Made by a program: the position numbers and the translations under genes | The notes under the pieces: model-generated | The model's database searches: none | Seen by the model: the letters and a program-made list of their open reading frames with translations, nothing else | What the model was told of the DNA's origin: nothing | Assembly (NCBI RefSeq): GCF_963921235.1 | Contig: NC_086107.1 | Coordinates: 105,154,001 to 105,218,000 of the forward strand | Direction: 5' to 3' | Length of the DNA stretch: 64,000 nt | Source: Mobula hypostoma | Lineage: Eukaryota | In this document: positions 1,551 to 64,000 of the stretch, one piece after another | Numbering within the stretch: position 1 is the stretch's first letter | How the letters are laid out: each line of letters starts with the position of its first letter

Positions 1551-1688
1551 AAACACAATAGATTCTGCAGATGCTGGAAATCCAGAGCAACACGCACAAG
1601 ATGCTGGAGGAGCAATGCGAGGTCAGACAGCATCTATGGAGGGGAATAAACAGTCAACGTTTCGTGCTGAGACCCTTCATCAGGATTT
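1551..1688 (-). mobile_element. Penelope-derived short insert with decayed hammerhead motif
   Basis: Minus strand of 1651-1686 reads ATC-CTGATGA-AGGGTCTCAGCAC-GAAA-CG-TT-GACTG; the body matches the copies at 38052, 56858 and 63421. Confidence 0.8.
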
Positions 1689-1727
1689 GGAATAAACAGT
1701 CGACGTTTTGATCAGGACCTGACCTCA

Positions 1728-1838
1728 AGTCCTGAAGAAGGATCTTTGCCCTGAGCATTGTCTGTTTATTCTTTTTCATAAATGCTGCCTGACCTTCTGA
1801 GTTCCTCCAGCATTTTCTGTGTGTGTGTATTGCACAGA
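1728..1838 (+). mobile_element. Penelope-derived short insert, inverted relative to 1551-1688
   Basis: AGTCCTGAAGAAGG...ATGCTGCCTGACCTTCTGAGTTCCTCCAGCATTTTCTGTGTG, same family in the opposite orientation. Confidence 0.7.
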
Positions 1839-8799: not shown

Positions 8800-9335
8800 C
8801 CCTTGACAGTGTGGCACTCCCTCGGTACCGTCCCTCCGGCAGTGTGACACTCCCTCGGTACCGTCTCTCCAACAGTGACTCACTCCCTCGGTACCGTCCC
8901 TCCGGCAGTGTGACACTCCCTCGGTACCGTCCCCCCGGCAGTGAGACACTCCCTCGGTACCGTCCCCCCGGCAGTGTGACACTCCCTCGGTACCGTCCCC
9001 CCGGCAGTGAGACACTCCCTCGGTACCGTCCCCCCGGCAGTGAGACACTCCCTCGGTACCGTCCCCCCGGCAGTGAGACACTCCCTCGGTACCGTCCCCC
9101 CGGCAGTGAGACACTCCCTCGGTACCGTCCCCCCGGCAGTGAGACACTCCCTCGGTACCGTCCCCCCGGCAGTGAGACACTCCCTCGGTACCGTCCCCCC
9201 GGCAGTGTGACACTCCCTCGGTACCGTCCCCCCGGCAGTGAGACACTCCCTCGGTACCGTCCCCCCGGCAGTGTGACACTCCCTCAGTACCGTCCCTCGG
9301 ACAGTGAGATACTCCCTCAGTACTGTCCCTCCCAT
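8800..9335. repeat. 33-bp GC-rich minisatellite, ~16 units
   Basis: Unit CACTCCCTCGGTACCGTCCCCCCGGCAGTGWGA; homogeneous centre, degenerate edges; explains the repetitive 11-aa ORFs. Confidence 0.97.
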
Positions 9336-22135: not shown

Positions 22136-22278
22136 GGATAGGGCTTTTATTCTTTTGTCATAGAACATAAATAAGACACACAGGATTGTTACGTATTTTA
22201 CAGCTTCCTTTTAATCATTTGTCATACTCACAAAATCATTTTCAAAAATCCCTGGCAAGTACTTGTAAAACTTAAGAT

Positions 22279-22620
22279 AACACACACAAAATACTGGTGG
22301 AATTCAGCAGGTCAGGCAGCATCTAGAGGGGGAAGACGCCAGAATAAAAAGGTGGGTGGAGGGGAAGGAGGATAGCTGGAAGGTGATAGGTGAAGCCAGG
22401 TGAGTGGGAAAGGTAAAGGTCTGGAGAAGAAGGGATCTGATAGGAGAGGAAAGAGGATCATAGGAGAAAGGGAAGGAGGAGGAGACCCAGGGGGAGGTGA
22501 TAGACAGGTGAGAAGAGATAAAAGGCCAGAGTGGAGAATAGAAGAAGAGGGGAGAGGAAGGAAAAAAATCTTTTACCGGAAGGAGAAGTCAATATTTATG
22601 TCATCAGGTTGAAGGGTACC
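22279..22620 (-). mobile_element. Penelope-like element 3' region (hammerhead segment deleted)
   Basis: Minus strand GTLQPD..NIDFS-like endonuclease C-terminus followed by the pyrimidine-rich 3' region, as at 51380-51755. Confidence 0.75.
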
Positions 22621-23424
22621 AACCTTGTAAAACTTGTTGCAGGAGGCTTCTTTGGGAAAGAATTGCGAAGTAGCCAGTTGCTTAATTCACTGTGATTTCT
22701 GCTCAGCTAAATTCACCAGTGGCATGCTGTTCCTGAGGCTTTCTTTTCCCTCTAGTTGTAGTTCTGTACTGTTCTCGAAGTTGAGACTGAATTTAAAAAA
22801 ACTCATATGCACTGAGTTGTTATTCTGGAAACCTGGCAGATGGTTTGTTGGTGACCACAGAAATGAGACTGTTCAGCCTTTCCATCAGCATTATTTCAGT
22901 AGTCCTCATTTTCGATTACGTATTATTTGTCTCTTTTGCTTTTTGTCCCTTTTTTGTCTGTGATTGTGCTCTGAAGTTTATTGCCACCATCAGGAGACTT
23001 ATCAGTCCATTCCATAGACAAAAGGGATTGGTTGGTATACTGTGTGTGAGTTATAAAAACCATATTGGCACTCTGAAAGAAAAAATGTAAATTCTAAATG
23101 GTGTGGGTCTTTATCAGCACAGATAAATGAATAAACCTCTTTTCCAAATGCCTTTCTGAGATCAGGAAGCCCATTTTAATAAACTGAAGCTTGTTCTTTA
23201 CACTTAGTGATGGGAGCTGTGATTTAATCGGAACTTTCTTTACTTACAAACAGAGTTAAATCTGGGTCGCTAGAGGCTGCAGGGATGTAGATGGATGATG
23301 TTCCTTCCTGCTTTATCATTGGTTAAAATCAAAAACTTTTGGCCCAACCAATACTCATCAGAAAGATCCTGGACTAAATCCTAGTTTCGTACTCTGTTAA
23401 TCCATAAAAAGAAATTCTGGTTGT

Positions 23425-23670
23425 CTGGGTAGTCGCCAACCTGATGGCATAAATATCAATTTCTTCTTCTAATAAAAAAATAATTTTTCCCTCTCCCTCT
23501 CCTCTTCTACTTACTCACTCTGGCCTCTTACCTCTTCTCACCTCCCTATTACCCTCCTCCTCCCCTTTCTCCTATCTCCTCTTCTATCAGACTCCTCCAG
23601 CCCTTTATCTTTCCAACACACCTGGTTTCTCCTATCACATTCTAGCTATCCTCCTTCCCCTCCCCCCACC
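23425..23670 (+). mobile_element. Penelope-like element 3' region, inverted relative to 22279-22620
   Basis: GGTAGTCGCCAACCTGATGGCATAAATATCAATTTC followed by a pyrimidine-rich tract ending CTAGCTATCCTCCTTCCCCTCCCCCCACC. Confidence 0.7.
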
Positions 23671-24334: not shown

Positions 24335-24416
24335 TGGCAGTGGTGGGATTTGAACCCAGGTCTCCGTGGGGACTAGATCCTTCATCCAGAGCCTTAGACT
24401 GCTTGGCCACACCACG
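24335..24416 (-). pseudogene. tRNA-Leu(AAG) pseudogene
   Basis: Minus strand CGTGGTGTGGCCAAGCAGTCTAAGGCTCTGGATGAAGGATCTAGTCCCCACGGAGACCTGGGTTCAAATCCCACCACTGCCA aligns ungapped (82 nt) to vertebrate tRNA-Leu-AAG as recalled; U33>G, position-1 mismatch, CpG-type decay. Confidence 0.85.
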
Positions 24417-27055: not shown

Positions 27056-28676
27056 AGAAGTTCAAAGTGAATTGATTATCAAAGTACATATATGTCACTA
27101 TATACAACCCCAAGATTCATTTTCTTATGAGAATACTCAATAAATCCAGTAACCATTATAGACTCCATGCAAGACCATACCCAACAAGGCGAACAACCAG
27201 TGTAGAAATGATAACAAACTGTGCAAAGCAAAAAAGAAATAATAATAAACAAATATATATTGAGAACATGAGATGAAGAGTCCTTGAAAGTGAGCCCATA
27301 GAAAATATGTGAACGTGGGGATACATAGTAACTGGTTTTCTGCCCTTTTGCTGTCATTCACATTTTGCATTTATGTGACGTATAGTGTAAAAACTGTCAG
27401 AAAGTTTCATAAAGCTATATTCTTAAACTAAGAGGGAATATTGGGAAGAACGCAAAAGAAGTTGGAGGAACTTGGCAGGAATATGGAGGGAAATGGGCAG
27501 TTAATCTGGGTTGAGACTCTTCACTTATAGACTGATGATGGGGCCAGTGAAGGGTCTCAACCCAAAACATGAGTCCAGATGAAGGGTCTCTTCCAGAATA
27601 TGCAGCCTCTTGTGTCTCCAGAAATGTAAAGAATTTTTTGTGGTGAAGGTACCAACCTTCTATTCACAATCTGGATTATTACAGAATATATTATAGTATA
27701 GCTGAGGAAAAGGTTCTTCATACCATCATGCGTCATGGAAGTGTAGTGGTTAGCGCGATGCTGTTACTGCTCAGGGTTACGGAGTTCGATCCTGACGTCA
27801 TCTATAAGGAGTTTGTACATCTTCCCCATAGAATGCGTGGGTTTCCGCTCACAGTCCAAAGATGTACTGCTTAGTAAGGTAACTCGGTCATTGTAAGTTA
27901 ACCTGTGATTAGGCTACGGTTAAGTGGATGGATTGCTGGGTGGTGGGCTCTAAGGGCCAGAAGGGCATATTCCATACTCTATCTCTAAATAAACAAAATC
28001 AATATGTGTGTTGACCATGATTCCAATCTGCATGCACACAGATCGTATTCTTCTCTTCCCTGCCTAAACGTGTGCTGTCTAAATGCCTTTTAAACGTTAT
28101 TGTTGTATCTCCTTTTACTACCTCCCTGGTAGCACATTCCATATAGCCACCATGGAGGGGAGGTGGGAAATACTTGCCACGCAAATCTTCTTTAGACATT
28201 CTCCTTCCCACCTATATCTGCTCTTGTACTCATTTCCACCCTGACAAAAAGATTGTGAATCTGCCTCTCGTAATGTTACATACTGCAGTCAGTTTGCCTG
28301 TCAGCCTCCTGTGCTCCAGAGAAAACAGTCTAATTCTGCCCACCTCTCCCTGCAGTTAATTTGCTTCAATCCAGGCAGAATCCTTCTGCACCCCTTCCAG
28401 AGTGTTCACATCCTTCCTGTAGTGTGGCTTAACTGAAGTTTTATACAGCTGCAACGGGATTTCCCAACCTTTATAATCAACTTGACTAATTCCAGATTCA
28501 AAATTGTTCGGTGTCATTTCCAGTACAGAAGTGTATAGGAGAACAAAATTTTTACTCTGTTCTGATGCAGCAGAAAAAAAACACTAAGATAGAGAACACA
28601 ATAATAAAAACACAATAAGTTTGAATACATAAAGATAGCTTATATACATAGATTGTATGTCCATAAAGTGACGCAG

Positions 28677-30073: not shown

Positions 30074-30208
30074 ACTCCTGCCGAAGGATTTCGGCTTGAA
30101 ATTTCAACCGTACCTTTTTCCATAGATGCTGCCCGGCCTGCAGAGTTCCTCCAGCATTTTGTGTGTGTTGCTCAGATTTCCAGCATCTGCAGATTTTCTC
30201 TTGTTTGT
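30074..30208 (+). mobile_element. Penelope-derived short insert, decayed hammerhead
   Basis: CTCCTGCCGAAGGATTTCGGCTTGAAATTTC...CCAGCATCTGCAGATTTTCTCTTGTTT. Confidence 0.8.
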
Positions 30209-31119: not shown

Positions 31120-31211
31120 CACCTACAAAATGCTGGAGAAACTCAGCAGATCAGACAGCATCCATGGAGAGGAATAAAGAGCCGACATTTCGGGCTGAGA
31201 CCCTTCGTCAG
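31120..31211 (-). mobile_element. Penelope-derived short insert beginning at the hammerhead CUGA
   Basis: Minus strand CTGACGA-A-GGG-TCTCAG-CCC-GAAA-TG-TC; core intact, 5' arm of stem I missing. Confidence 0.8.
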
Positions 31212-36560: not shown

Positions 36561-36647
36561 TTTGATGAGAGCTCTAGATTTATCAAGCCTGTGAAGGAAA
36601 TGGGCTATATAAATCGTACCTTTTGCTAAGTCTTGTTTGTATATCAT

Positions 36648-37027
36648 AATCAAGAGAAAATCTGCAATTGTTGGAAATCCAAGCAACATACAGAAAGTGC
36701 TGGAGGAACTCAGCAGGCCAGGTTGCATCTATGGAAAGAGGTACAGTTGATGTTTTAGGCCGCGACCCTTTGGCAGGACTGGAGGAAAAAAGCTAAGGAG
36801 TAGATTTAAAAGGTCGGGGCAGGGGAGAGAGAAACATCAGGTGATAGGTGAAACCTGGAGGGGGAGGGATGAGGTAAAGAGCTGGGAAGCTGATGGGTGA
36901 AAGAGACAGAAGGCCATGGAAGAAAAAAAAGTGGGGAAGAGTACCAGAGGGAGGCGATAAGCAGGAAGGAGACAAGGTGAGAGAGGGAAAAGGGGATGGG
37001 AAATGGTGAAGGGGGGGTGGGGGGCAT
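36648..37027 (-). mobile_element. Penelope-like element 3' region with decayed hammerhead (36744-36781)
   Basis: Same organisation as 63421-63900. Confidence 0.8.
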
Positions 37028-37733: not shown

Positions 37734-38051
37734 ATTGAAAATAGGATAACAATAAAACTCTGATAATCTAGTATCCTTGTTGTCTGTGAATCTGTGTACT
37801 CATGAGGTTAGCCAAATATTATTGTGTTTGTTGGCCAAGTGTGGAGCCTGAACCAGGCTTGCTAACACCAGGGGTTAGGAATGTGAGTAGGTTTCTGGCC
37901 AGAGCTGGAGTCCAGAATATGGGTTAGAAGTGGGATCTGGAGTGCTTCAACATTTCAGCTTGTGTGTTTGATAAACTGAAACTCAACAGATTTCTCTTAT
38001 TTTTTTCAACTACTGGATAACATGTTTTTAAAAAAACTAAAGTAAAAGTGT

Positions 38052-38174
38052 AAACACGAGGAATTCTGCAGATGCTGGAAATTCAACCAACACACATCAA
38101 AGTTGCTGGTGAACGCAGCAGGCCAGGCAGCATCTCTAGGAAGAGGTACAATCAACGTTTCAGGCCGAGACCCT
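38052..38174 (-). mobile_element. Penelope-derived short insert truncated inside hammerhead stem II
   Basis: Near-identical to 63423-63546; flanked by AAGTGT at 38046-38051 and 38175-38180. Confidence 0.85.
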
Positions 38175-40084
38175 AAGTGTGTTGAAAGTAAAGGCGTGTG
38201 GGGGAGAAAAATGTGTAACATTGAATAGTTTTGGAAAATCTGTTTGACCCAGTGCCACCAGGGTCCTGAGGGTGCTGAGTTATCAGTTTTATTTTAATAA
38301 GATTTGTGAAATGGCGAGTCATTACCAAGATTAACCATTATAAAAATAAATATTCTTGTTAAAGCAGATTTATGATTACAGTTAATTGAAAATACTTCCC
38401 AAGGTGTGGGTAATTTCATATCCGGAAATAGAAATTCCTGCAAAATTCCTAATATTAACTAGAATTGCACATAATTTCTGAATGGAAATAACTGCAACTC
38501 CACAATTTTAATTTTTATTAATGTTTATATCAACTGAATGAAATACAACTGAGAAAAGCAAGGGATCTATAGTGAAATGTTAAAAAGGACCACATGCTTA
38601 ACACAGAGACAAACAAGATTAAAGCTTGTGATTTCTTGCTTTTGAAACTTTTACAAATACCCATTTAAAAAAGAAATCTGTTGTAAATGAGAGCATTACA
38701 CATACAAAAATGAACAGAAGCTGGTGAAGTTTTACAGATCTGTCATGTTCACACAGCTTTTTACTAGGGCACTACTTACTTAATGATTACCTGGCTATTT
38801 CTCTCTCTTGAGCTACAATGATTATTTCATAATGTGCTGTTCTTAAGTAACTGAATATTTATTTAGTGATAAAGTGCGGATTAGGCCCTTCCATCCCTTC
38901 CAGCCGTGCTGATTCAGCAACCTTGATTTAACCCTAACCAAATCACTGGACAACTTACATTGACCGAATAAACTACCTGGTACATCTTTGGGTATTGGGA
39001 AGAAATTGGAACATCAGCAGAAAAATCTATGATTTGCACAAACTTCTTGTGCACTTCAGTTTGCTGCCTCCTTCACAACTAGTCAAATCTTAAATGTATT
39101 GCAAGATCCCAGCACTATGTCACAGGTGCCTTCCAGTGCTGAAGTATATTGTGACTTTGTTCTCTTTCCATTTTAAAATTAGAAACAAATTCTATTATTG
39201 AACTGGCAAATTTTGTCTCTGTTTCCCTGATGAAAGAATGAAGGAGCTGTCAAGTAGAAATTGTGTACATATCCATGTCAGCAGCATTTCAAATAATGTA
39301 AAAATGATAATATAAAAATATTTTTCCCCACTATCTTTTGAACACTGAAAATCTTTACAAAGTCTGAGATCCAGCACAGAATAGAGCAATTAAAATTTAG
39401 AGCCATAGCTATCATCTTTAATTAATCAAATTCTTGATTTCTTCTTTCCTGAGATTTTGGTTGCAGGAGGGGCCACCCCCAAAAAACTAGCTCTTGGACT
39501 TGCAGGAATTGAATTAAGCAGGACTTAAGTGTTTGATTGAATCAAAACTAAATATTGGCATTCATTTTAATTCAGACAGGATGAAATTAAAATAAATTCT
39601 TACTCTTAATTGAGCTACAGAACTTTTTAAAAACTCCTATTTTCTTTGAACCAGACACGACAGACTTCAATGGCTAAATTTTTAGATCTAAATCCTTATA
39701 TTTCTATTCACAGATGATTAACCCTTCTAATTTCTCAAGTGTTTCCAGCCAAAATCTGTTAAAGTTGCCTTTTACATGCAACTGAAAAATTGTTAAGCCT
39801 AATGTAACATCTACAAATTTATTGTGCATTCATATACTTCAAACCAAATATAACTTACTCTAAAAGCCAAGCCCAGGACTGTATAAAATGTTAACAAGCA
39901 TCTCAGAAAGCTTTGAAGGCTTTAGTGCACAAGAATGCTAGAACCCATTGATCATATAAGGGCACAGATTCAAGCATATCCACATCAATCAGAATTCCAA
40001 CTACAAATCCCCTATAGCAGTTTTAAAAATTCCATTTGTTAGAGGACAATATATCTATTAAAGTTTGCAATTCAAATTTGCAGG

Positions 40085-41520
40085 AAGAAGTTTGTGAACC
40101 CTTTGCAATTGCCTGGTTTTCTGCATTAATTAGTCATAAAATGTGGTCTGATCTTCATCTAAGTATCTAAGTCACAATAACAGGCAAACACAATCTGTCT
40201 AAACTAATAACACACAAACAATTGTACTACTTCTCGTCAATACTGAGTGCACCATTTAAACAATCACAGTCTAGGTTCAAGAAAGTATGTGAACCTCTGG
40301 TGTAATGCCTTCTGCAAAAGCTATTTGGAGTCAGGTGTTCCAGTCAATGAGATGAGATTGAGTGTGTGGGTTGTAGAGGTGCCCTGCCCTGTAAAAAAGA
40401 CACACAAAATCAGTTTACTGACAGAGCCTGCTCTTCTCAAGAAAGATCTGTTTATTTCCACCATGCTTCGATCAAAACAACTTTCCGAGCAAATTAGAAG
40501 CATTTTAGAGATGCATGAAGCTGGAAAAGGCTGCAAGAGCATTTCTAAAGACCTGAGTGTTCATCAGTCCACAGTAAGAGAAATTGTCAACAAATGCAGG
40601 AAATTCAACACTGTTGCTACTCTCCCTGGGAGTGGAGTGGGCGTCATGCAAAGATCACACTAAGAGCACAATGTGCAACGCTGAAGGAAATGAAAAAGAA
40701 CCCAAGGGTAACAGCAAAAGACCTGAAGAAATCACTAGAATTTGCTAAAGTCTCTTCATGTGTCCACTATAAGAAAGACATTGAACAAGAATGGTGAACA
40801 AGGGAAAATTTGCAGATGCTGGAAATCTAAGCAACATACATAAAACGCTGGAAGAACTCAGCAGGTCAGGTACACCTATGGAGAAGAGTAAACAGTCAAA
40901 ATTCTGGGCTGAGACCCTTCATCATGTCTAAGTGTTCATGGAAGGACACCACAGAGGGATCAGAATCAAATTTATTATCACTGGCATGTGTCCTGGAACC
41001 ACTGCTCTCCAAAATAAAACATTGTTGCACATCTCAGGTTTGCAAAAGACCACCTGGATGTTCCACAATGCTTCTGGAACAATTTTCTGTGGACAGATGA
41101 GACAAAAGTTGAACTTTTTAGCAGAAATGCACACCGCAATGTTTGGAGGAAAAAGGGCGCTGCAAAACCAAAACCAAGACCTCATCTCAGCCATGAAGCA
41201 TGGTGGAAGGAGCACCATGGTTTAGGGCTGCTTTGCTGCCCCATGGCCTGGACAGCTTGCAATTGTTGAGAAAGCAATAAATTCTAAATTGTATCAAGAC
41301 ATTTTACAGGAGAATGTCAGGGTAGCGGTCTGTCACCTGAAGCTTAATAGAAGTTGGAAGATGCAACAAGGCAGTGATCCGAAACACAAGAGTAAATCAA
41401 CAACAGAATGGTTTAAAAAGAAGAAAATTTGTGATTTGGAATGGCCAAGTCAGAGTGCTGATCTTAACCCAATTGAGATGCTGTGGCATGGTCTGAAGGG
41501 GGCTGTTCATGTAAGGTATA
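40085..41520 (+). mobile_element. Tc1-family (DD34E spacing) transposon relic with two nested inserts
   Basis: Paired-like N-terminus (SKQLSEQIR..ILEMHEAGKG.KSISK), KHGG.S.MV, QQ[G]SDPKH...WPSQSADLNPIE with 34 residues between the mutated second D and E; direct repeat AAGT.TGTGAACC at ~40088 and ~40283; right end missing. Confidence 0.9.
40797..40931 (-). mobile_element. Penelope-derived short insert nested in the Tc1 transposase
   Basis: Tc1 sequence AAGAATGGTG resumes as GTGTTCATGGAAGGAC after the insert; the insert ends at GAGACCCTTCATCA (hammerhead segment). Confidence 0.85.
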
Positions 41521-43074
41521 ACAAATGTGGGTTGATACTGTTCAATGTCTTGTTGAAGTATTATTAATGGTGCTGTGGGAAAGAATGGAGCTCATAATTT
41601 TGTTGGCTGCTCAGGAGGGCGTTTACCTCATGTATCCTAGTCGTTAACAGCATATCTATTAGGTTTGAAAATAAAACCTCTAAAAGTATTAATGAGAAGT
41701 CTTTAATCTGAAATATTTACAGTTTCTCTTTTCACAGATGCTACCTGATCTGATGAGTTTGCCAGCATTTTAAGTTTCTGTATCTGCAAATTTCATTGGC
41801 TGTTTAATCCCAATTAATCTCCTTTCTTCAATTATTTTCACTGCTCTGTCACCAGAGGTGCCTCTAGGCTGACACTAATTAAGTGATTTCCTGTTGACAT
41901 TTTCTGTGATTGCACCTCTGTCTTTAATTGCCTTTGAAGCCTGTTTGAAGGCCTAAAAATCTTTGTTCAGTCTTCAAACTGTAAATTGGCAAATTCAGCC
42001 TTCTTTTCTATCTCTGTCTGGAACTAACTCATGCATAAAAAGTGAAGAGTGCTGCTTTAAATTTTTATTTACCTTCGCCTTTTAATTTTTACTATTTTAC
42101 CTTTTCTTTATCTTTAAATTTCTGCCTCACTTGGTTATTCTCCTTTTGACATTTCTCCATTTCTGTCAAAGATGAAGCAACTGTAGTAGCCTTTATTAAA
42201 TCATATAGCTTCAAGCATGTACTTACATTATATAACATTATTTATATCATATATGGGGCGACAGGGTTGATAAGAGGTTAGCGGAGTCACTTTACAGTAC
42301 AGGCCTTCACTGATTGGGGGTTCAATTGCCTCCGCTGTCTGTTAGGAGTTTATACATTCTCCCTGTGATCGCGTTGGCTTTCCTCTGGGTGCTCCAGTTT
42401 CTTCCCACATTCCAATGACGTATGGTTAGGGTTACTAAGTTGTGGGCATGCTATGTTGGTGCCAGAACTGTGGCAACACTTGTGGGCAGCCCCCAACACA
42501 ATCATCGCAGATTTTTATTTGACGCAAGCAACGTATTTCACTGGTATGTTTTTGATGTTTTGATGTACATGTGACAAAATAAAGTTAATCTTTAAAAAGA
42601 ACTTTTGTAATTGCCAAGTCTTGGCATCCTTTAATTGTTATGTTCAAATGTTTGCTGGCTTGCATAATTTTTACAGCGAACTGAAGCCCAATTAACAATC
42701 TTTATCTCCTACCTTGTTTGTGTCATAGACTTCTACCATTAACCGAGGAGTCCGTGGACCCCAGGTTGGGAACCCCTGTAATACATTGCTTCAGCACCAT
42801 TCACCTTTTGCTCATTTCTCCCATTGTTAGCAAGAATTTGTTGCAGTTCTCTAAAATCGTATTCTGACTTTATCCTGCATTTTAGTAGAATAGACACAGA
42901 ATGCTTGTTTGTTTTTTTATTAAAATAATTATTCCAGGAACAACAAGCAAGTTCTCAGAATCTGTTGATCAAGCTGAGCCAGAAACATGCACTGAATTCT
43001 AGACTTGGGATCCTGCCTCGCATGTTGGTCCTAGGTTTCTGGTACTGAACCAGCCGAGAACCTTGTTGCATATA

Positions 43075-48820: not shown

Positions 48821-50549
48821 TCGTGATTCAGGTCTGTTGTTACATTCCCTGACATTAACTCAACTCATGATACCCACAAGCCAATATACTCAGGTTAGGT
48901 AATCATGCTCTATCAGTGATCCATTTGTCTCTACAGTCCCTATTATCCAGGTAGCCCTGTCACCTGCTGCCTCTTTGGTCCTGATATCCTGGTATTTCTT
49001 TTGCCCTTTACAGTGTTCCACTGCAACGCTCCACATCTCTGATGACTAGTTACCTTGTCACTTTAATCCTGTTATCCAGTTTCTCTATGGCCCCTTCACC
49101 AAATGTCCCTGTACTTGAAGTTCCTCTTACCTGGTGTCTGTATGATTGCTGTTACCTTGTGTACATTTAGCAATCATGCAGACTTTTGCTACCAGGTGGA
49201 CCTGCATTATTCATCGTCTCTAAAACCCCACTTTTGTGTCACCTCTCCGTTCCTTTGCGGATCTTGCTACCTCATTTTCTTCATTCCTGTACTTCATTAT
49301 CACGATATTTTAACAGTAAATAAACCAGCAATGGTGTCTGTTAGAAAACACCAAATACTGACAGCATCTACGGAAAAAGGAGAATTGATTTTCAAATTCA
49401 AGATGTTTCTTCACAGATGCTGCTTGACTGCTGAACATTTGCAACAATTTTAAAAATTTCACATTTGCAGCTTCTGCAGCTTTTAAAAATTTTTTATTGG
49501 TTTGCAGGTTTAATTGAACATATGTTGAACATCAGTAGCACTTTATGCTGTTTGAGGAACTGCAACTAAGTGTACTTGCATGTTACAGCATGATGTGCTC
49601 TTTTTCGCTGGGAAGCCAAGCGTTACCTGGTTTGCCCGTTTACTCTGCAGAAATACAAAACAGTTCCGGTCCACTTGAAAATGCAATGACTAATAGGTGA
49701 TGAATTTCACCTTGAATATTTCCTTTACGTTACTTAAAATTGAAATTCCGTGTTCATGTTGGCAGGATGTGTCTGATTTTGCACTTCAGAGTGGGAAGCT
49801 CTGGGATAATTGTTGTGTAATTCAATCAGCCACAAGGTGGGAAAATTGGAGAAGTAGCAAGCTATTCAAGACTGAAATGAGCAGAAATTTAGCAAGCTAT
49901 TCAATCCCCTGAGCCTGTTCTGTCATTCAGCAAGGTCACGATAAACCTTCTATGTCATGCCATTTGCCTGACCTCTCCACATATTCCTTGATTTCATTAA
50001 TTCTGATAGATGTATCAGTCTCAATCATTGACTAAGTATCTACGGTCAGCCAAGGTAGAGGAATCCAATGAATCAGCATCCTTTCAGTGATAAAATTTCT
50101 GTTCACTTCAATCTTGAATTACTTTAATGGTTTGTGTGCACACAGGATGAGTGAATGGAAATGCATTTGAAACACATTTATCGTATTAACGCTATTATAG
50201 TGGCAGTGACTAAGGTTCAATTTCCACTGCTGTCTAAGGAGTTTACACATTCTCCCCATGACTGCATGGGTTTCCTCCAGGTGCTCCGGTTTCTTCCCAC
50301 AGTACCAAGGTGGATGGATTAGTAGGTTAATTGGTCACATGGATGTAGTTGGGCAGTGCAGGCTTGTTGGACCAGAAGGACCTGTTGCTGTGCTGTATCT
50401 CTAAATGAAATATTAAATGAACCAAATATAAGTTTAATTTGGGATACTTTTGGAATATTAATTTATATCACTTTATAGAGAGTGAATAGGACCATAATTG
50501 TGGTCATTTGTATGATTGGATTTGTAGAAAGGAGTATTGTGATTTTACA

Positions 50550-51755
50550 ACTGTGGAATCTCACTATCTCCATCTCTGGAGGCAAGCCGTCAACTGACAG
50601 CTTTTACAAACTTACAGATTCCCGTAGTTATCTCAACTATGCTTCTTTCCACTTTATCTCCTGTAAAAATGCTATTCCCTTTTCTCAGTTTCTTCGCCTC
50701 TGCTGCATCTGTTCCTAGATGCGGCTTTCTGTTCCAGAGCATCAGAGATGGGGTTTCCTTCCCTCTACTATTGATGCTGCCCTCACCTGCATCTCCTCTA
50801 TTTCCCGTACATCTGCACTCACTGCATCTTACGCCTCCTTAATTGTGATGGAGTCCCTTTTGTCCTTGCGTACTACCCCATCGGCCTTCGCATTCAACAC
50901 ATCCTCTGCAGCTTCCGCCATCTGCAAAGGGATCCTACCTCCAAACATATTTTTATATTTCCCTCCCTTCTGCTTTGTGTAGGGATTGCTCCCTCCATGA
51001 TTCCCTTGTCCATTCATCCTTCCCCATTGATCTCCCTCCTGGCACTTGTCCCTGCAAGGGGCCTCAGTGCTACACCTGCCCGTACACCTCCTTCCTCACC
51101 TCCATTCAGGGGCCCAAACAGTGCTTCCAGGTGAGGCAACATTTCATCTGTGAATCTGCTGGGGTCGTCTATTGTGTCCGATGCTCCCAATGCGGTCTCC
51201 TCTCCATTCGTGAGACCAGTTATAAATTGGGGCATTGCTTTGTTGAGCACATCTGCTCCATCCACCACGACTGTGACTTCCCAGTGCCAAGCATTTTAAT
51301 TCCCAATCCCTTTCTGACATGTCGATTCATGGCCCCCTGTTGTGTCAGGGTGGAGTAGCAACACTTTATATTCCATCTGGGTACCCTCCAATCCAATGGT
51401 ATGAACATTGATTTCTCCTTGTGGTTAAAAAAAAATTCTAACCCCTTCCTCTATTCCCCACTCTGACCTTTTACTTCTCACCTGCCCATCATCTTCCCCT
51501 GGGCCCCCTCCTCCTTCCCTTTCTCCTATGGTCCACACTCCTATCAGGTTCTTTCTTCTCCAGCCCTTTACCTTTCCCACCCACCTGGTGTCACCTGTCA
51601 CCTTCCAGCTAGCCTTCTTCCCCTCCCCTCATCTTTTTATTCTGGCATCTTCCCCTTTCTTTCTCAGACTTGAAGAAGGGTCTTGGCTCAAGATGTTGAC
51701 TGTTTCCATATATGTTGCCTGACCTGCTGAGTTCCTCCAGCATTTTGTTGTGTTG
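50550..51755 (+). mobile_element. Penelope-like retroelement fragment (RT C-terminus, Cys-rich linker, GIY-YIG endonuclease, 3' region with decayed hammerhead)
   Basis: TD.FYK.TDS.SYL.Y.S.H...CKNAIPFSQFLRL..ICS; GT.PC...C.TC; VVYCVRCSQCGLL.I.ET; ends AGACTTGAAGAAGGGTCTTGGCTCAAGATGTTGACTG. Confidence 0.9.
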
Positions 51756-52782
51756 TGGTTATTAGAGACTGGGAAGGGGAAGGGAAGTGAAAGGGGATAT
51801 AGTGATTGGCAGAGAATACTGATGTGTGATATTCAGTGATATCTTTGCAGTTTGGCATAGCAGTCTTACTTTGAATGCTCTGAATTGGTCAGTCAGGCTA
51901 GCAGTGGGAATGTGATTGGCATCGTGTGATCTCACCCCTCACTGAGTCACTTTGTTCTCTAATACCTACATATTTCAGTGAAATTACTGCAAATTGACTT
52001 CTGTAGATTTAATGCTGATGTGCTTTAGAGAGAGGTGAGAAGTTAGATAACAGAACCCATGGAAGCAATAGAAAATGAAAGCAGGAGCTGATAGCGGCAA
52101 AGGTCATTTGTGTGTGGTTTATGAAGGCCTTCCTGTTCTTCACAGTGTGAGGTATAACAAGTCCTCTGAAGCAAATAAAATACAACTCAGGAGCTGCAAA
52201 GTGGAATGCACATTTATAGATTATTCACAAATTAATTATTCCCCCTTCCTTAACATGTTTGGATAGTTGAACAATATCTTGAACATGGAAATTTTGATTG
52301 TGACTAAGCTGATTAGTGCATTTGTGAGAGGCTTTGTTCTGAGGGCTCTGCTGGGTGGGGAAGAAGAGGGGCATCTGCCTGTGCCAAGGGCTTGTTTTCC
52401 TTTTTATTCCAAGCCTTCATTCTTTGTTGTAGGAACTGGCAGATAGAAGTCTGGAGCATGTGTTTTGTTTTTTTAGTTAACTTTCCTTTGGTGCTGTGTG
52501 GAGTCAGAGACTAACATTACCCTGCTGTGTTAATAGAAGAGGGATTGATCTGTGATTTAGTATGACATAACATGAGTATTATTGACAACCAATAGATGCA
52601 GCATTGTTGATGATCACATTTGTGACAGATTAGCTTTGAAAGAGCAGTGTGTCTTCAAAGCACAGCCAAGATTTGCCGCAAGCAGTGAAAGCTTCTTGAC
52701 TAGGAATAGGGAATGCACTACCAAAGCTTGTTCACTAAACATACTCCTGCCTTTTATTTTTCTTTTCAGTTTTATACTGTAC

Positions 52783-55060: not shown

Positions 55061-56857
55061 GAATATAGGCTTTGTTCTGTTTGTGGTCTAATTCTAGAGA
55101 TAGTGTTAAGCACTTGATCAGTCTAGACCAGGGATTCCCAACCTGGTGTCCATGGACCCCTAGTGTTACGTATTTGATAAGAATCTAAAGAAGGTGCTGT
55201 AAATGTATTTATATTTTAGAGTTTGGTATAAATCTACAAATGGTGGTACATATTTAATCTGGTTGTGGACAGAGTATTCTGTTTTTAATTTGTTAGTAGA
55301 GGCAGTGTTGTGATTTATATGATTCTGGACTGTACTGTATTTCACCAGATTTTGGAGACCATTTGGCCTATTCAATCATCTAATGATGGAGAATGCAATG
55401 TTTTGACCATTTTCTTGAATGGTACTGTGCATTTAATCAGAATTCAAAGATGTATGTTTAACCAGATTGAGAAGATGACATATGTAGTCGAATTCTAGAC
55501 AGGGTTCTTACTATTTGCAGATTTTTGGTACAGATTTAATGAAGTTTATTGAGTTAGATTCTGGCTATAGTATTGTGTACTCATTCAGATACAAGAGACT
55601 GTGGTCCAGTTCCTGAGGGGGTGCTGAGAATTTGTTAGAGAAAGTGCTGTCAGTTTAATCAGAATCTATGCATTTAGTAAGGTTCTGGAGAAGTTGCTGA
55701 ATATTTAAGCGATATCAAAGAGGTTGCAATGCATTGAATAAGGCATCTGAGAAGTTGCGGAGTTGGTGTTTTACATTTATAATGATTCCAGAAACATTGA
55801 TTTTTATTGTAGTAGATTATATATGGTGCTTTGTCATTTAATCTAATTTTGGCAAAAGATTTCAGGGCAGTACTATGTATCAGATTCTAAGAGGTTCTGC
55901 TGTCATAACATCACCACTGTCACCCTCTGTCTTCTATTATAAAACAAGTTTCCTTCGGTTTTTGTCAGATTTTGGAGATGGTGCTGTGTATTTCCAAAGA
56001 CTGCTGTGTATTTTGCATGAAATTGGAAATGGTAGTAAGTAGTTAATCAATTTCTAATGATAGTATGTTGTAGGTTTTTAACTGGATTCTAGAATAATAC
56101 TTTATCTTTAATCCAATTCTGGAAACAGTGCTGGTGCTTAGTCAGATTCTGGAGATAGTGTTACAGATTTCCAAGAATATTGCCATTTGGTGATTCTGAA
56201 AATAGTGCTCCGTGTTTAAGTAGAATCTCGAACAGACTTGTCTATTTGATTCCAGCAACAATACCATGTTATCAGTCAAATCTCAGACGTGCCTTTGTGG
56301 ATTTAATCAGTTTCTGTAGACATTTTTGCTCAGATTCTGTAGATTTATTTACAAACCTCATTTCCAGAAAAGTTGGGATATTTTCCAAAATCCAATAAAA
56401 ACAAAAATCTGTGATATGTTAATTCACGTGAACCTTTATTTAACTGACAAAAGTACAAAGAAAAGATTTTCAATAGTTTCACTGACCAACTTAATTGTAT
56501 TTTGTAAATATACACAAATTTAGAATTTGATGGCTGCAACACACTCAACAAAAGTTGGGAAAGAGTTAAAATAAGATTGGAACGTGCACAGTGTATTCAA
56601 GTAACACCGGTTTGGAAGACTCCACATTAAGCAGGCTAATTGGTAGCAGGTGAGGTATCATGACTGGGTATAAAAGTAGCGTCCATCAAAGGCTCAGTCT
56701 TTGCAAGCAAGGATGGGTCGTGGCTCACCCGTTTGTGCCAGCATTTGTGAGAGAATTGTTAGTCAATTATAGCCACCTGGGCTCGGGAGTACTTTGGAAA
56801 ACCATTGTCACTCAACACAGTCCGTCGCTGCATCTAGAAATGCAACTTGAAACTGTA

Positions 56858-56989
56858 AACAACAGGAATTCTGCAGATGCTGGAAATTCAAGCAACACAC
56901 ATCAAAGTTGCTGGTGAACGCAGCAGGCCAAGCAGCATCTGTAGGAAGAGGTGCAGTCGACGTTTCAGGCCGAGACCCTTTGTCAGGAC
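56858..56989 (-). mobile_element. 132-bp Penelope-derived insert with 10-bp target-site duplication
   Basis: TGAAACTGTA at 56848-56857 and 56990-56999 inside the Tc1 coding sequence. Confidence 0.92.
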
Positions 56990-56991
56990 TG
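56954..56991 (-). ncRNA. Minimal type I hammerhead ribozyme motif (G8>A variant)
   Basis: CAGUC-CUGACAA-AGG(GUCUCGG)CCU-GAAA-CG-UC-GACUG: 5-bp stem I, 3-bp stem II, palindromic ACGU in place of stem III. Confidence 0.7.
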
Positions 56992-58859
56992 AAACTGTAT
57001 TACGCAAGAAGGAAGCCATACATCAACTCTATGCAGAAACACCAGCGAGTTGTCTGGGCCCGAGCTCATCTCAGATGGACTGAAAGACTGTGGAACCGTG
57101 TGCTGTGCTCAGATGAGTCCACATTTCAGCTAGTTTTCGGAAAAAATGGGCGTCGAGTTCTCCATGCCAAAGATGAAAATGACCATCCAGATTGTTATCA
57201 GTGAAAGGTGCAAAAGCCAGCATCTGTGATGGTATGGGGGTGCATCAGTGCCCACGGCATGGGTGAGTTGCATGTATGTGAAGGTACCATTGACTCGAGG
57301 CGTATATTAGGATTTTAGAGAGACATATGTTGCCATCAAGGTGACGTCTCTTCCCGGGACATCCATGCTTATTTCAGCAGGACAATGCCAGACCACATTC
57401 TGCTCGGGCTACAACAGCGTGACTTTGTAGACACAGAGTGCGTGTGCTTGACTGGCCTGCTGCCAGTGCAGATCTATCTCCTATTGAAGATGATTGGCGC
57501 ATCATGAAGAGGAGAATCAGACAACGGAGACCACGGACTGTGGAGCAGCTGAAGTCTTATATCAAGCAAGAATGGACAAAATTTCCAATTGCAAATCTAC
57601 TACAATTAGTATCCTCAGTCCCAAAACGATTAAAAAGTGTTATTAAAAGGAAAGGTGATGTAACACAATGGTAAACATGCCTCTGTCCCAACTTTTGTTG
57701 AGTGTGTGCTAGCCATCAAATTCTAAATTTGTGTATGTTTACAAAATGCAATTAAGTTGGTCAGTAAAACTACTGAAAATCTTTTCTTTGTACTTTTGTC
57801 AGTTACATAAAGGTTCACGTGAATTAACATATCACAGATTTTTGTTTTTATTGCATTTTGGAAAATATCCCAACTTTTCTGGAAATGAGGTTTGTATTAA
57901 CATACTTATTTAGAGATACAGTGCAGAATAGGTCCTTCAAGCCCTTCCAAGTATGCCGCCCCAGCAACCCGACAACCCCGATTAACCTTAACCTAATAAC
58001 GGGACAATTTACAATGACCAGTCAACCTAGCCAGTATGTCTTTGAACTGCTTGATGAAACTGGAGCACCTGGGGAAAGCCCATGCATTCCACGGAGAGGA
58101 CATACAGAGACTCCTTGCACAATGGTGCTGGAATTGAACTCTGAACTCCGGAATGCACTGCGCTGTAATAGTGTCATGCTAACCACTACCATACTGTGGT
58201 GCCCAGAATACTGTTTGCTAGATTCTTTGGACAATATTGTATATATTAAATTTTTGGAGATGGTGTATTTTTAATCAGATTTTGGAAAGGTTTTGTGTGC
58301 TTAATTGAATGCTGAAGCCAGTATTTCACATTTAATTAAATTATGGAGATTATAATCATATTCTGAAGGTAGTGCAGTGTTTTAAAATTAACCTTATGTT
58401 GCATATTTAAATGGATCCCTAAGTCTATTTATTGAGATACAGCGTGGAATAGGCCCTTCCGACTCTTCCAGCCGTGTTGCCCAGCAACCCCCAATTTAAC
58501 CCTAGCCTAATCACAGGACACTTTACAGTGACCAATTAACCTACTAACCGGAAGTAGTATGACTTTGGAATGTGAGAAGAAACTGGAGCACCCAGAGAAA
58601 ACGCACGTATTCTGTCGGGAGGATGTACAGGTTCCTTAAAGATGATGCCAGAATTAAAGAACGAACTCCTGACACCCCAAGCTTTAATAGCATCATGCTA
58701 ACTACTACGCTACCATGGCATCTCATGCTGTGTATTCTGACAGGTTTTAGAGAAGGTCTTTGTATATAATCAAATTCCATTGACCTTGTTGCGTATCAGA
58801 TCAGATTCTGGTGTGGTGTATTTAATCAGATTTCGGCAACACTGCTGTAAGAAATAAAA

Positions 58860-63335: not shown

Positions 63336-63420
63336 ATTAGGAACCTGAGGGGCAGCTTTTTCAAATAGATGAATCAAAGTTCAAAGTACATTTATTATTA
63401 AACTGTATGCTGTATACAAT

Positions 63421-64000
63421 CACAAACACGAGGAATTCTGCAGATGCTGGAAACTCGAGCAACACACATCAAAGTTGCTGGTGAACGCAGCAGGCCAGGC
63501 AGCATCTCTAGGAAGAGGTACAGTCGACATTTCAGGCTGAGACCCTTCGTCAGGACTAATTGAAGAATGAGCTAGTAAGAGATTTAAAAGTGGGAGGGGG
63601 AGGGGGAGATCCAAAATGATAGGAGAAGACAGGAGGGGGAGGGATGGAGCCAAGAGCTGGACAGGTGATTGGCAAAAGGGATATGATAGGATCATGGGAC
63701 AGGAGGCCCAGGGAGAAGGAAAAGGGGGAGGGGGGGAAAGCGCAGAGAATGGGCAAGGGGTATAGTCAGAGGGACAGAGGGAGAAAAAGGAGAGTGAGAG
63801 AAAGAGTGTGTGTATATAAATAATGGATGGGGTATAAGGGGGAGGTGGGGCATTAGCGGAAGTTAGAGAAGTCAATGTTCATGCCATCAGGTTGGAGGCT
63901 ATAAACACATTCTTTCTCTCACTCGCCTTTTTCTCCCTCTGTCCCTCTGACTATACCCCTTGCCCATCCTCTGGGCTTTCTCCCCCTCCCCCTTTTCCTT
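63421..64000 (-). mobile_element. Penelope-like element 3' region with an adjoining inverted partial copy (63901-64000, runs off the window)
   Basis: Minus strand SLQPDGMNIDFSNFR* endonuclease end plus 3' region; 63901-64000 is the reverse complement of ~63716-63815. Confidence 0.9.
63522..63557 (-). ncRNA. Minimal type I hammerhead ribozyme motif, catalytic core intact
   Basis: AGUC-CUGACGA-AGG(GUCUCAG)CCU-GAAA-UG-UC-GACU: CUGANGA and GAAA cores, GUC cleavage triplet, stem I AGUC/GACU. Confidence 0.8.

Follow-up and report, generated by a model that had tools for sequence, protein, structure and literature searches.

Short copies of a repeat carrying a hammerhead motif, such as the one at positions 56858–56989 of a 64-kb stretch of repeat-rich animal DNA (the window; 43% GC), raise the question of whether they are mobile units in their own right or pieces of a larger element. 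Judged from sequence comparison, these repeats are the 3' ends of a Neptune-type Penelope-like element (PLE), each made up of a minimal hammerhead and an optional tail of ~40 nt. Their 5' ends cluster at the upstream edge of the hammerhead. Throughout, positions within the element are given in element sense, with +1 denoting the A of AGUCC at this upstream edge; +1 corresponds to 63557 in the long copy 63421 (63418–64000 in Table 1) and to 56990 at the flagged copy 56858–56989, where element sense is the minus strand.

The short copies and their insertion sites

All seven short copies listed in the initial annotation match 56858–56989 (blastn; nhmmer E values 1e-23 to 1e-39) and all are in PLE sense. 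An eighth, older copy lies at 41697, and nhmmer also located the copy at 22277–22640, from which the hammerhead is deleted, and several weaker, older pieces. The flagged copy is 92% identical to the long copy 63421, 93% to copy 38052 and 57–78% to the other eight. Two 3' ends are found among the short copies, at about +100 (1728 and 31120) and at about +135–140 (the rest). Coordinates are compiled in Table 1.

Table 1. Penelope-like copies and associated features of the window (starts in element coordinates; TSD, target-site duplication)
Feature	Position	Strand	Remarks
Flagged short PLE copy	56858..56989	-	Start +1/+2; tailed 3' end; A of +1 common to the TSD
Optional PLE tail, flagged copy	56858..56891	-	Between the two 3' ends (about +100 to +135/140); basis includes loose ends at 63458 and 63418
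Left TSD copy, 10 bp, perfect	56848..56857	+	Within Tc1 coding sequence
Right TSD copy, 10 bp	56990..56999	+	
Predicted minimal type I hammerhead, flagged copy	56954..56990	-	Core G8>A; predicted cut after 56959 (+32)
Short tailed copy	38052..38174	-	Start +12, inside hammerhead; 6-bp TSD 38046-38051, 38175-38180
Short tailed copy in Tc1 element	40797..40931	-	Start -2..+1; 3-bp duplication 40794-40796, 40932-40934
Short tailed copy	30074..30207	+	Start +1..+4; candidate 9-bp TSD (1 mismatch) overlapping +1..+3
Short, near tail-less copy	31120..31211	-	Start about +4/+5; candidate 6-bp TSD
Head-to-head locus	1551..1826	.	All three pieces start at +1..+3
Tailed arm of that locus	1551-1688	-	
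Internally deleted hammerhead fragment of that locus	about 1689-1720	-	
Tail-less arm of that locus	1728-1826	+	
Older-family short copy	41697..41796	+	57-65% to others; start about +1 by eye (weak), +14 by nhmmer
Longest copy	50545..51757	+	Broken RT C-terminal part, C-x4-C-x2-C linker, degenerate GIY-YIG, 3' UTR, hammerhead, tail-less end
Long copy, flagged subfamily	63418..64000	-	63418-63900 with ORF end, pyrimidine-rich 3' UTR, hammerhead and tail; from there an inverted arm past window edge
Long copy	36645..36966	-	3' UTR, hammerhead, tail
Long copy, hammerhead deleted	22277..22640	-	

The perfect 10-bp TSD first noticed at copy 56858, TGAAACTGTA, is confirmed, and a perfect repeat of at least 10 bp within 2 nt of both edges has a chance probability of 6.5e-5. 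The 6-bp TSD reported for copy 38052 is also present, with a chance probability of about 0.7–1.3%. Copies 56858 and 40797 had been described as sitting within Tc1 coding sequence with a readable pre-insertion state, and this is correct: both empty sites give a continuous transposase frame, and it is this frame that sets the 3-bp duplication at 40797. Pfam matches in the Tc1 context were HTH_Tnp_Tc3_2 (E 0.0012), HTH_SB (E 2e-13) and DDE_3 (E 2e-6), with HTH_SB alone passing its curated cut-off. A search for TSD candidates at 36645, 50545 and 41697 gave none that was convincing, and a 9-bp candidate around 1551/1728 is weak, lying 5–11 nt away from the edges.

Two of the copies initially counted separately, 1551 and 1728, are both real but form the arms of a single head-to-head locus, in which a further hammerhead fragment, the third, separates them; they are thus not independent, the second arm ends near 1826 and not at 1838. 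Next to this locus, the 1551 arm abuts an older Penelope-family remnant (1513–1548; nhmmer E 0.02), at about the position of the remnant's hammerhead.

Relation to the long copies and to the hammerhead

The longer copies extend into Penelope sequence, as had been proposed: 36645, 50545 and 63418 all reach the PLE 3' UTR or ORF. Since the same downstream parts are present in 50545–51757 and 63418–63900, the short copies can be identified as the last ~100 or ~135 nt of the element. In the longest copy, residues encoded by 50545–51418 align to P0002 (tblastn E 9e-56) and also to proteins of 816–891 aa that contain RVT_1 and GIY-YIG (Pfam, most matches below curated cut-offs), and the 3' UTR is pyrimidine-rich. 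The order of RT and C-terminal GIY-YIG within one ORF is that of EN+ PLEs, copy 50545 itself being broken and 5'-truncated. Its linker reads CKGPQCYTC, with equal spacing in P0026, P0030 and P0038. The Neptune/Nematis type is recognised by a C-x2-5-CxxC linker that separates RT from EN (PMC8557442), and Neptune and Poseidon are the vertebrate PLE groups (10.64898/2026.07.22.740005). Neptune is the probable assignment over Nematis, drawn from the linker and from vertebrate-group membership. Among named proteins, the nearest to the longest Penelope piece are predicted ones from Mobula hypostoma and Hypanus sabinus (59–72% identical), which makes a ray the likely host.

Copy 63418–63900 carries the last ORF codons, and in both 50545 and 63418 the hammerhead is located about 250–300 nt past the ORF end, as in the terminal repeats of EN+ PLEs. 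Other EN+ PLE features are the optional tail of 30–40 bp, delimited here by 3' ends at +100 and +140, and the inverted arms (63900; 1551/1728). No full-length copy with the arrangement pLTR-ORF-pLTR was found in the 64-kb window, and Pfam returned no match on the degraded ORF pieces 50849 and 50775. Several further pieces were observed in and around these copies. The segment 63716–64000 is an inverted arm, 94% identical to the long copy, and together they form a long hairpin; sub-threshold matches of this hairpin to plant miRNAs in Rfam were rejected as spurious. The piece at 23422–23670 comprises a PLE ORF end and 3' UTR, ends short of the hammerhead and is without the usual 3' end. A strong splice-donor-like site, CAG/GTGAGG, lies at 51125–51140 in the EN-coding region, ~530 nt upstream of the acceptor-like AG at +1/+2, and the two sites possibly delimit a candidate PLE intron.

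The hammerhead was assigned by hand against the published description of the minimal type (PMC4209133). The motif features CUGANGA, an extra A, a 4-bp stem II, GAAA, a palindromic ACGU without helix III, and a 5-bp stem I. Stem cells are paired in 79% of cases, compared with 20–44% in slid registers. The Rfam hammerhead models gave no match on any copy at E ≤ 1, the predicted folds have no extra stability over shuffled sequences (z -0.1 to -0.6), and core changes are present in six of nine copies, G8>A in the flagged copy among them. Compensatory changes are absent from all nine stem pairs; this is expected for decayed copies and is neutral with regard to the fold in active elements. The short copies retain as much as 32 nt of sequence ahead of the predicted cut, in agreement with what had been noted at the outset. 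The hammerhead would appear to be a passenger, its predicted cut site having no role in setting the main boundary.

A discrete non-autonomous ribozyme-bearing RNA, with short copies forming subfamilies apart from full-length elements, had been suggested for these copies, and such a SINE-like or retrozyme lineage is not supported. In a tree of 11 rows the short copies are intermixed with the long ones, and a topology holding the eight short rows together is rejected (p-AU 8.4e-6); a SINE would form its own lineage apart from its autonomous partner. The flagged copy groups with the long copy 63421 at 100/99, and the trio 56858, 63421 and 38052 is the sole starred branch; six of the eight inner branches are unresolved, and several separate short lineages may exist. 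The letters that 56858 and 38052 have in common against 63421, at 63454 and 63457, are those of the family majority and not markers of short copies.

Other hallmarks point the same way. The consensus boxes of Pol III promoters served as a guide: no B box at up to one mismatch is present in any of the 11 copies, and A-box-like matches are scattered in three of the 11. There is no poly(A) in the copies, and Rfam gave no match on any of them and no structural-RNA head, so that neither the head nor the tail of a SINE is found. Among the 13 TRF rows for the 64-kb window none is a tandem repeat with the hammerhead in at least two consecutive units, the arrangement of retrozymes, and the head-to-tail copies that had been envisaged are thus absent from the window; its only partial hammerhead duplications are at 1689–1720 and about 27545–27575. 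Retrozymes also carry a canonical active type I hammerhead; the motif here is of the minimal type, with core changes in most copies. Nor is the tandem or circular template needed that had been invoked for the sequence upstream of the cut site, as the Anolis PLE in vitro takes mainly uncleaved RNA as its template (PMC11167929).

Pattern scans of metagenome contigs and of viral contigs gave no matches, and the one locus from a looser metagenome scan matched within the 24-nt pattern region only and was treated as chance. Two further features were observed in the window, a sub-threshold tRNA-like match at 24335–24416 (25 bits), which is likely the head of an unrelated tRNA-derived SINE, and a 33-bp minisatellite at 8807–9329 (15.8 copies, 94% matches) that is open in several frames.

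Clustering of 5' ends at the upstream edge of the hammerhead

The 5' ends were counted over the 11 loci that have a 3' end, seven of them short and four over 300 nt, with the three ends at 1551/1728 taken as one count. Omitted from this count were 23422–23670, which has no such end, and the weak older pieces 1513–1548, 5285, 6100, 27449/27549, 49358/49406, 7861 and 14481. Six of the seven short loci, one of them weak, start within -2 to +5, and +1 itself lies 32 nt upstream of the predicted cut; copy 38052 starts farther in (Table 1). All four smooth-length nulls give P ≤ 0.001 for six of 11 loci falling within any one 8-nt window. Without locus 41697 the cluster has P 0.0003–0.014, and with five weak older loci added (n = 16) six of 16 gives P 0.0001–0.014, while five of 16 gives P of up to 0.09, under the shortest null. 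Nulls with a short mean fail to give four of 11 loci over 300 nt (P ≤ 0.009), and under the null able to do so the cluster has P ≤ 0.002. The clustering is real, and the smooth spread of 5' ends along the Penelope sequence that plain truncation would leave is not what is seen. Tailed copies (~135 nt) and tail-less copies (~95–100 nt) start at one base, which indicates that this end is set by sequence and not by distance.

Initiator elements follow the consensus YYANWYY, and +1 is the A of an initiator-like motif of this form in all three long copies that keep the hammerhead; such motifs occur at a density of 1.2–2.1 per 100 nt. In the same three copies +1/+2 is also the AG of a splice-acceptor-like site, a pyrimidine tract followed by YAG. 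All three copies with a TSD of at least 6 bp that start near +1 (56858, 30074 and 31120) have a TSD end resembling element letters -2 to +3. No clear cap-derived extra G is present at the junctions, 31120 and the 1720 fragment each having a lone G that is ambiguous. Head-to-head pairs also occur among the older copies. At 27449–27621 the arms of an older-family pair, similar in build to 1551/1728, meet close to the hammerhead edge: a partial hammerhead stops near the cut site and a new start at +1 follows. In the old inverted pair at 49358–49482, the first bases of the arms fall within the hammerhead's 3' half.

Contigs of four public runs were aligned to 63400–63899 at 88% likeness. Two of these are DNA runs, X1 (organism A, possibly the source of the window itself) and X5 (organism B); X9 and X17 are contigs regarded as RNA only by guess and were excluded from expression, starts and splicing. 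The contigs aligning to this segment number 136,411 in X1 and 129,798 in X5, and the PLE family is thus very abundant. Contig depth was not used as copy number, as it dips at private changes of 63421 and is summed over overlapping contigs. Among the 24 of 1632 loose-end rows listed, with some ends uncounted, the largest 5'-side end is at 63557 (+1; 282 contigs in X1 and 217 in X5), and the predicted cut site (+32/33) is absent from these 24. A second 5'-side end is found at +3 in X5 (105 contigs). On the 3' side, ends at +100 (338 contigs in X1, 268 in X5) and +140 (165 in X5) delimit the tail.

Part of the peak at +1 comes from sister subfamilies that differ upstream, and the consensus of its loose letters resembles their pyrimidine tract. 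The agreement at +1 is 0.41–0.44 with a median loose length of 68–116, compared with 0.38–0.39 and 255 for pure-flank ends and 0.67–0.70 and 25–39 for a pure subfamily break at 63520. As the agreement at +1 is nearer to that of pure flank and the length is intermediate, a substantial share of these loose ends are probably true junctions. The end at 63520 was itself rejected as a breakpoint and reflects sister-subfamily divergence (agreement 0.7). Over 63447–63557, X5 also contains joints of +1 to +111 and +74 and of ~+127 to +51/+76 at a few times single-contig depth, and these represent rare partial tandems with varied ends. Contigs cannot show RNA starts, and an RNA 5' end at +1 is a prediction from the initiator-like motif there.

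Origin of the short copies and comparison with known systems

The short copies comprise the last ~100 or ~135 nt of the element, belong to the same subfamilies as the long copies and are flanked by TSDs of 3–10 bp. The explanation that we favour, and to which we give about an even chance of being correct, is that RT begins within uncleaved PLE RNA and continues until the template runs out at a fixed 5' terminus, located at the hammerhead's upstream edge, leaving a stub. The Anolis PLE protein nicks AT-rich DNA in vitro, extends both strands and starts inside the RNA at tail sites; it uses uncleaved RNA, and 5'-shortened templates give shorter products (PMC11167929). In this Poseidon element the tail sits between two internal RT start sites (PMC11167929). 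By analogy, the PLE protein here would nick AT-rich DNA and start cDNA at the two sites bounding the tail, on uncleaved RNA and on either strand. In a transcript begun in the pseudo-LTR the priming region would lie ~100–140 nt from the RNA 5' end, so that priming at this upstream region would produce a stub ending at +1 and priming at the downstream copy would produce long, variably truncated copies. The initiator-like A in the three long copies suggests that +1 would be the transcription start. The cDNA end may then be joined to the target by microhomology of 1–4 nt, which would blur the edge; the likeness of TSD ends to the letters at -2 to +3 in three copies makes it likely that microhomology shapes the joint. 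Priming on both strands would generate head-to-head pairs with one arm tailed, as at 1551/1728. Mobilisation by the Penelope RT/GIY-YIG protein, part of the original proposal, fits this scheme, whereas the separate RNA lineage proposed along with it does not fit the tree.

Among the other explanations, the one with the best claim, though clearly less probable than run-off, is that RT, while copying a longer RNA, stalls or falls off at the upstream edge, the short copies being truncations with a hot spot caused by splicing factors on the pyrimidine tract and AG, by PLE protein bound there or by a dimeric ribozyme. The acceptor-like AG at +1/+2 is compatible with it, as is the second X5 peak at +3, the first base past the AG, although the loose letters there look like a mismatch-trimmed +1. 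Many copies pass the site (four of 11 loci), and contig depth is high upstream. In the Penelope of D. virilis the intron ends at helix I (PMC4209133) and the start site is 46 bp upstream of the intron (PMC2377424), so that +1 is no start in that PLE. Termination at the ribozyme fold itself, raised at the outset, survives as part of this alternative, but RT reaches the fold from its 3' side and a stop caused by it would be expected near +37 and not at +1, on the far 5' side, where the fold is already unwound; in stability the fold also does not exceed shuffled sequences. Among the 15 of 113 joints listed, none is a splice-type joint ending at +1. We regard as unlikely a boundary made at the DNA level, in which an endonuclease or repair trims a longer cDNA and target microhomology picks YCAG at +1. 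The TSD ends of 56858, 30074 and 31120 are in keeping with this, and PLE endonucleases cut their own pLTR junction DNA (PMC11167929), but matches of 1–4 nt occur all along the element and could not alone choose a single site, and hardly any match, or none, is present at the 1728 arm and at 40797, both of which start at +1.

Less probable still is a discrete non-autonomous ribozyme RNA, SINE- or retrozyme-like and perhaps circular, that propagates itself through PLE enzymes. Defined 5' and 3' ends, own TSDs and the presence of both presumed RT start sites in the stub are what such an RNA would show; there are also the few X5 joints of +1 to +111 and +74 (depth 310 and 118, compared with about 58 for a single contig), and retrozymes derive from pLTRs (10.64898/2026.07.22.740005). 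Against this stand the missing short-only lineage, tandem array, B box and poly(A) and the minimal hammerhead with its changed cores and uncompensated stems, and a circle made by the ribozyme would join +32/+33 rather than +1. The least probable explanation, to which we give very little weight, is random 5' truncation, with the peak an artefact of detecting a conserved hammerhead beside a fast-changing pyrimidine tract. Sister subfamilies do inflate the contig peak at +1, numbers in the window are small, and the weak older copies start at scattered motif positions. However, the flanks in the window are plainly non-element (Tc1 frame, TSDs), copies down to 55 nt are detectable (E 2e-11), and the nulls that soften the cluster do not account for the long loci.

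A further step beyond run-off, which we consider improbable, is that +1 would be the capped start of PLE RNA and that each stub, uniting initiator edge, hammerhead and both RT start sites within 135 nt, would serve as a complete minimal template open to re-transcription and re-mobilisation in trans. If true, each PLE subfamily would shed its own SINE-like mini-element, animal retrozymes would arise directly from such stubs, and the start of PLE transcription would be recorded in the genome thousands of times, to the single base. Hammerheads, tails, inverted arms and solo truncated ends have all been published for PLEs, and the 5' peak is a small refinement of PLE biology. A literature search found no report of a 5' peak at the hammerhead edge in the text available, including PMC3846280 and PMC2377424; supplements, figures and subscription papers may bear on it. 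The peak touches on how PLEs form pseudo-LTRs, inverted arms and short solo pieces, and on the role of the hammerhead. A sharp in vivo 5' boundary at the upstream edge and not at the cut supports the in vitro copying of uncleaved RNA, and it gives a prediction at one-base precision. For annotation, such repeats of ~130 bases are to be filed as PLE ends and not as a new SINE.

The Neptune-type EN+ PLEs of Craig et al. 2021 (PMC8557442) likewise have an RT, a C-x2-5-CxxC linker, a C-terminal GIY-YIG, a terminal-repeat hammerhead, heavy 5' truncation, an inverted 5' arm and an optional tail of 30–40 bp. Truncation is described as variable there, whereas here the 5' ends peak sharply at the hammerhead's upstream edge. 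Poseidon of Anolis carolinensis (PAc; Frangieh et al. 2024, PMC11167929) has, as here, two 3' ends ~40 nt apart and about 100–140 nt downstream of the hammerhead start, and would have in common with the present element the copying of uncleaved RNA, AT-rich targets and the extension of both strands. It belongs to the Poseidon clade, and the available text of that study is silent on 5' ends in vivo and on a start site at the hammerhead. The minimal type I hammerheads of metazoan PLEs (Cervera and De la Pena 2014, PMC4209133) also lack helix III and have ACGU at 15.1–16.1, an extra base between 9 and 10.1 and a 5-bp helix I, and mostly occur singly, on truncated PLEs; helix II has 4 bp here compared with 7–8 bp in Schistosoma, and most copies here are mutated. 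Animal non-LTR retrozymes (Cervera and De la Pena 2020, PMC7229834; Li et al. 2026, 10.64898/2026.07.22.740005) resemble the short copies in being short and non-coding with a type I hammerhead, in their kinship with PLE pLTRs, in occurring as dispersed monomers and in having TSDs of >4 bp in some copies. Retrozymes are tandem with a hammerhead per unit, typically canonical, and are expressed as circles, whereas the repeats described here form no array in the window, carry a minimal motif and are units without a lineage of their own.
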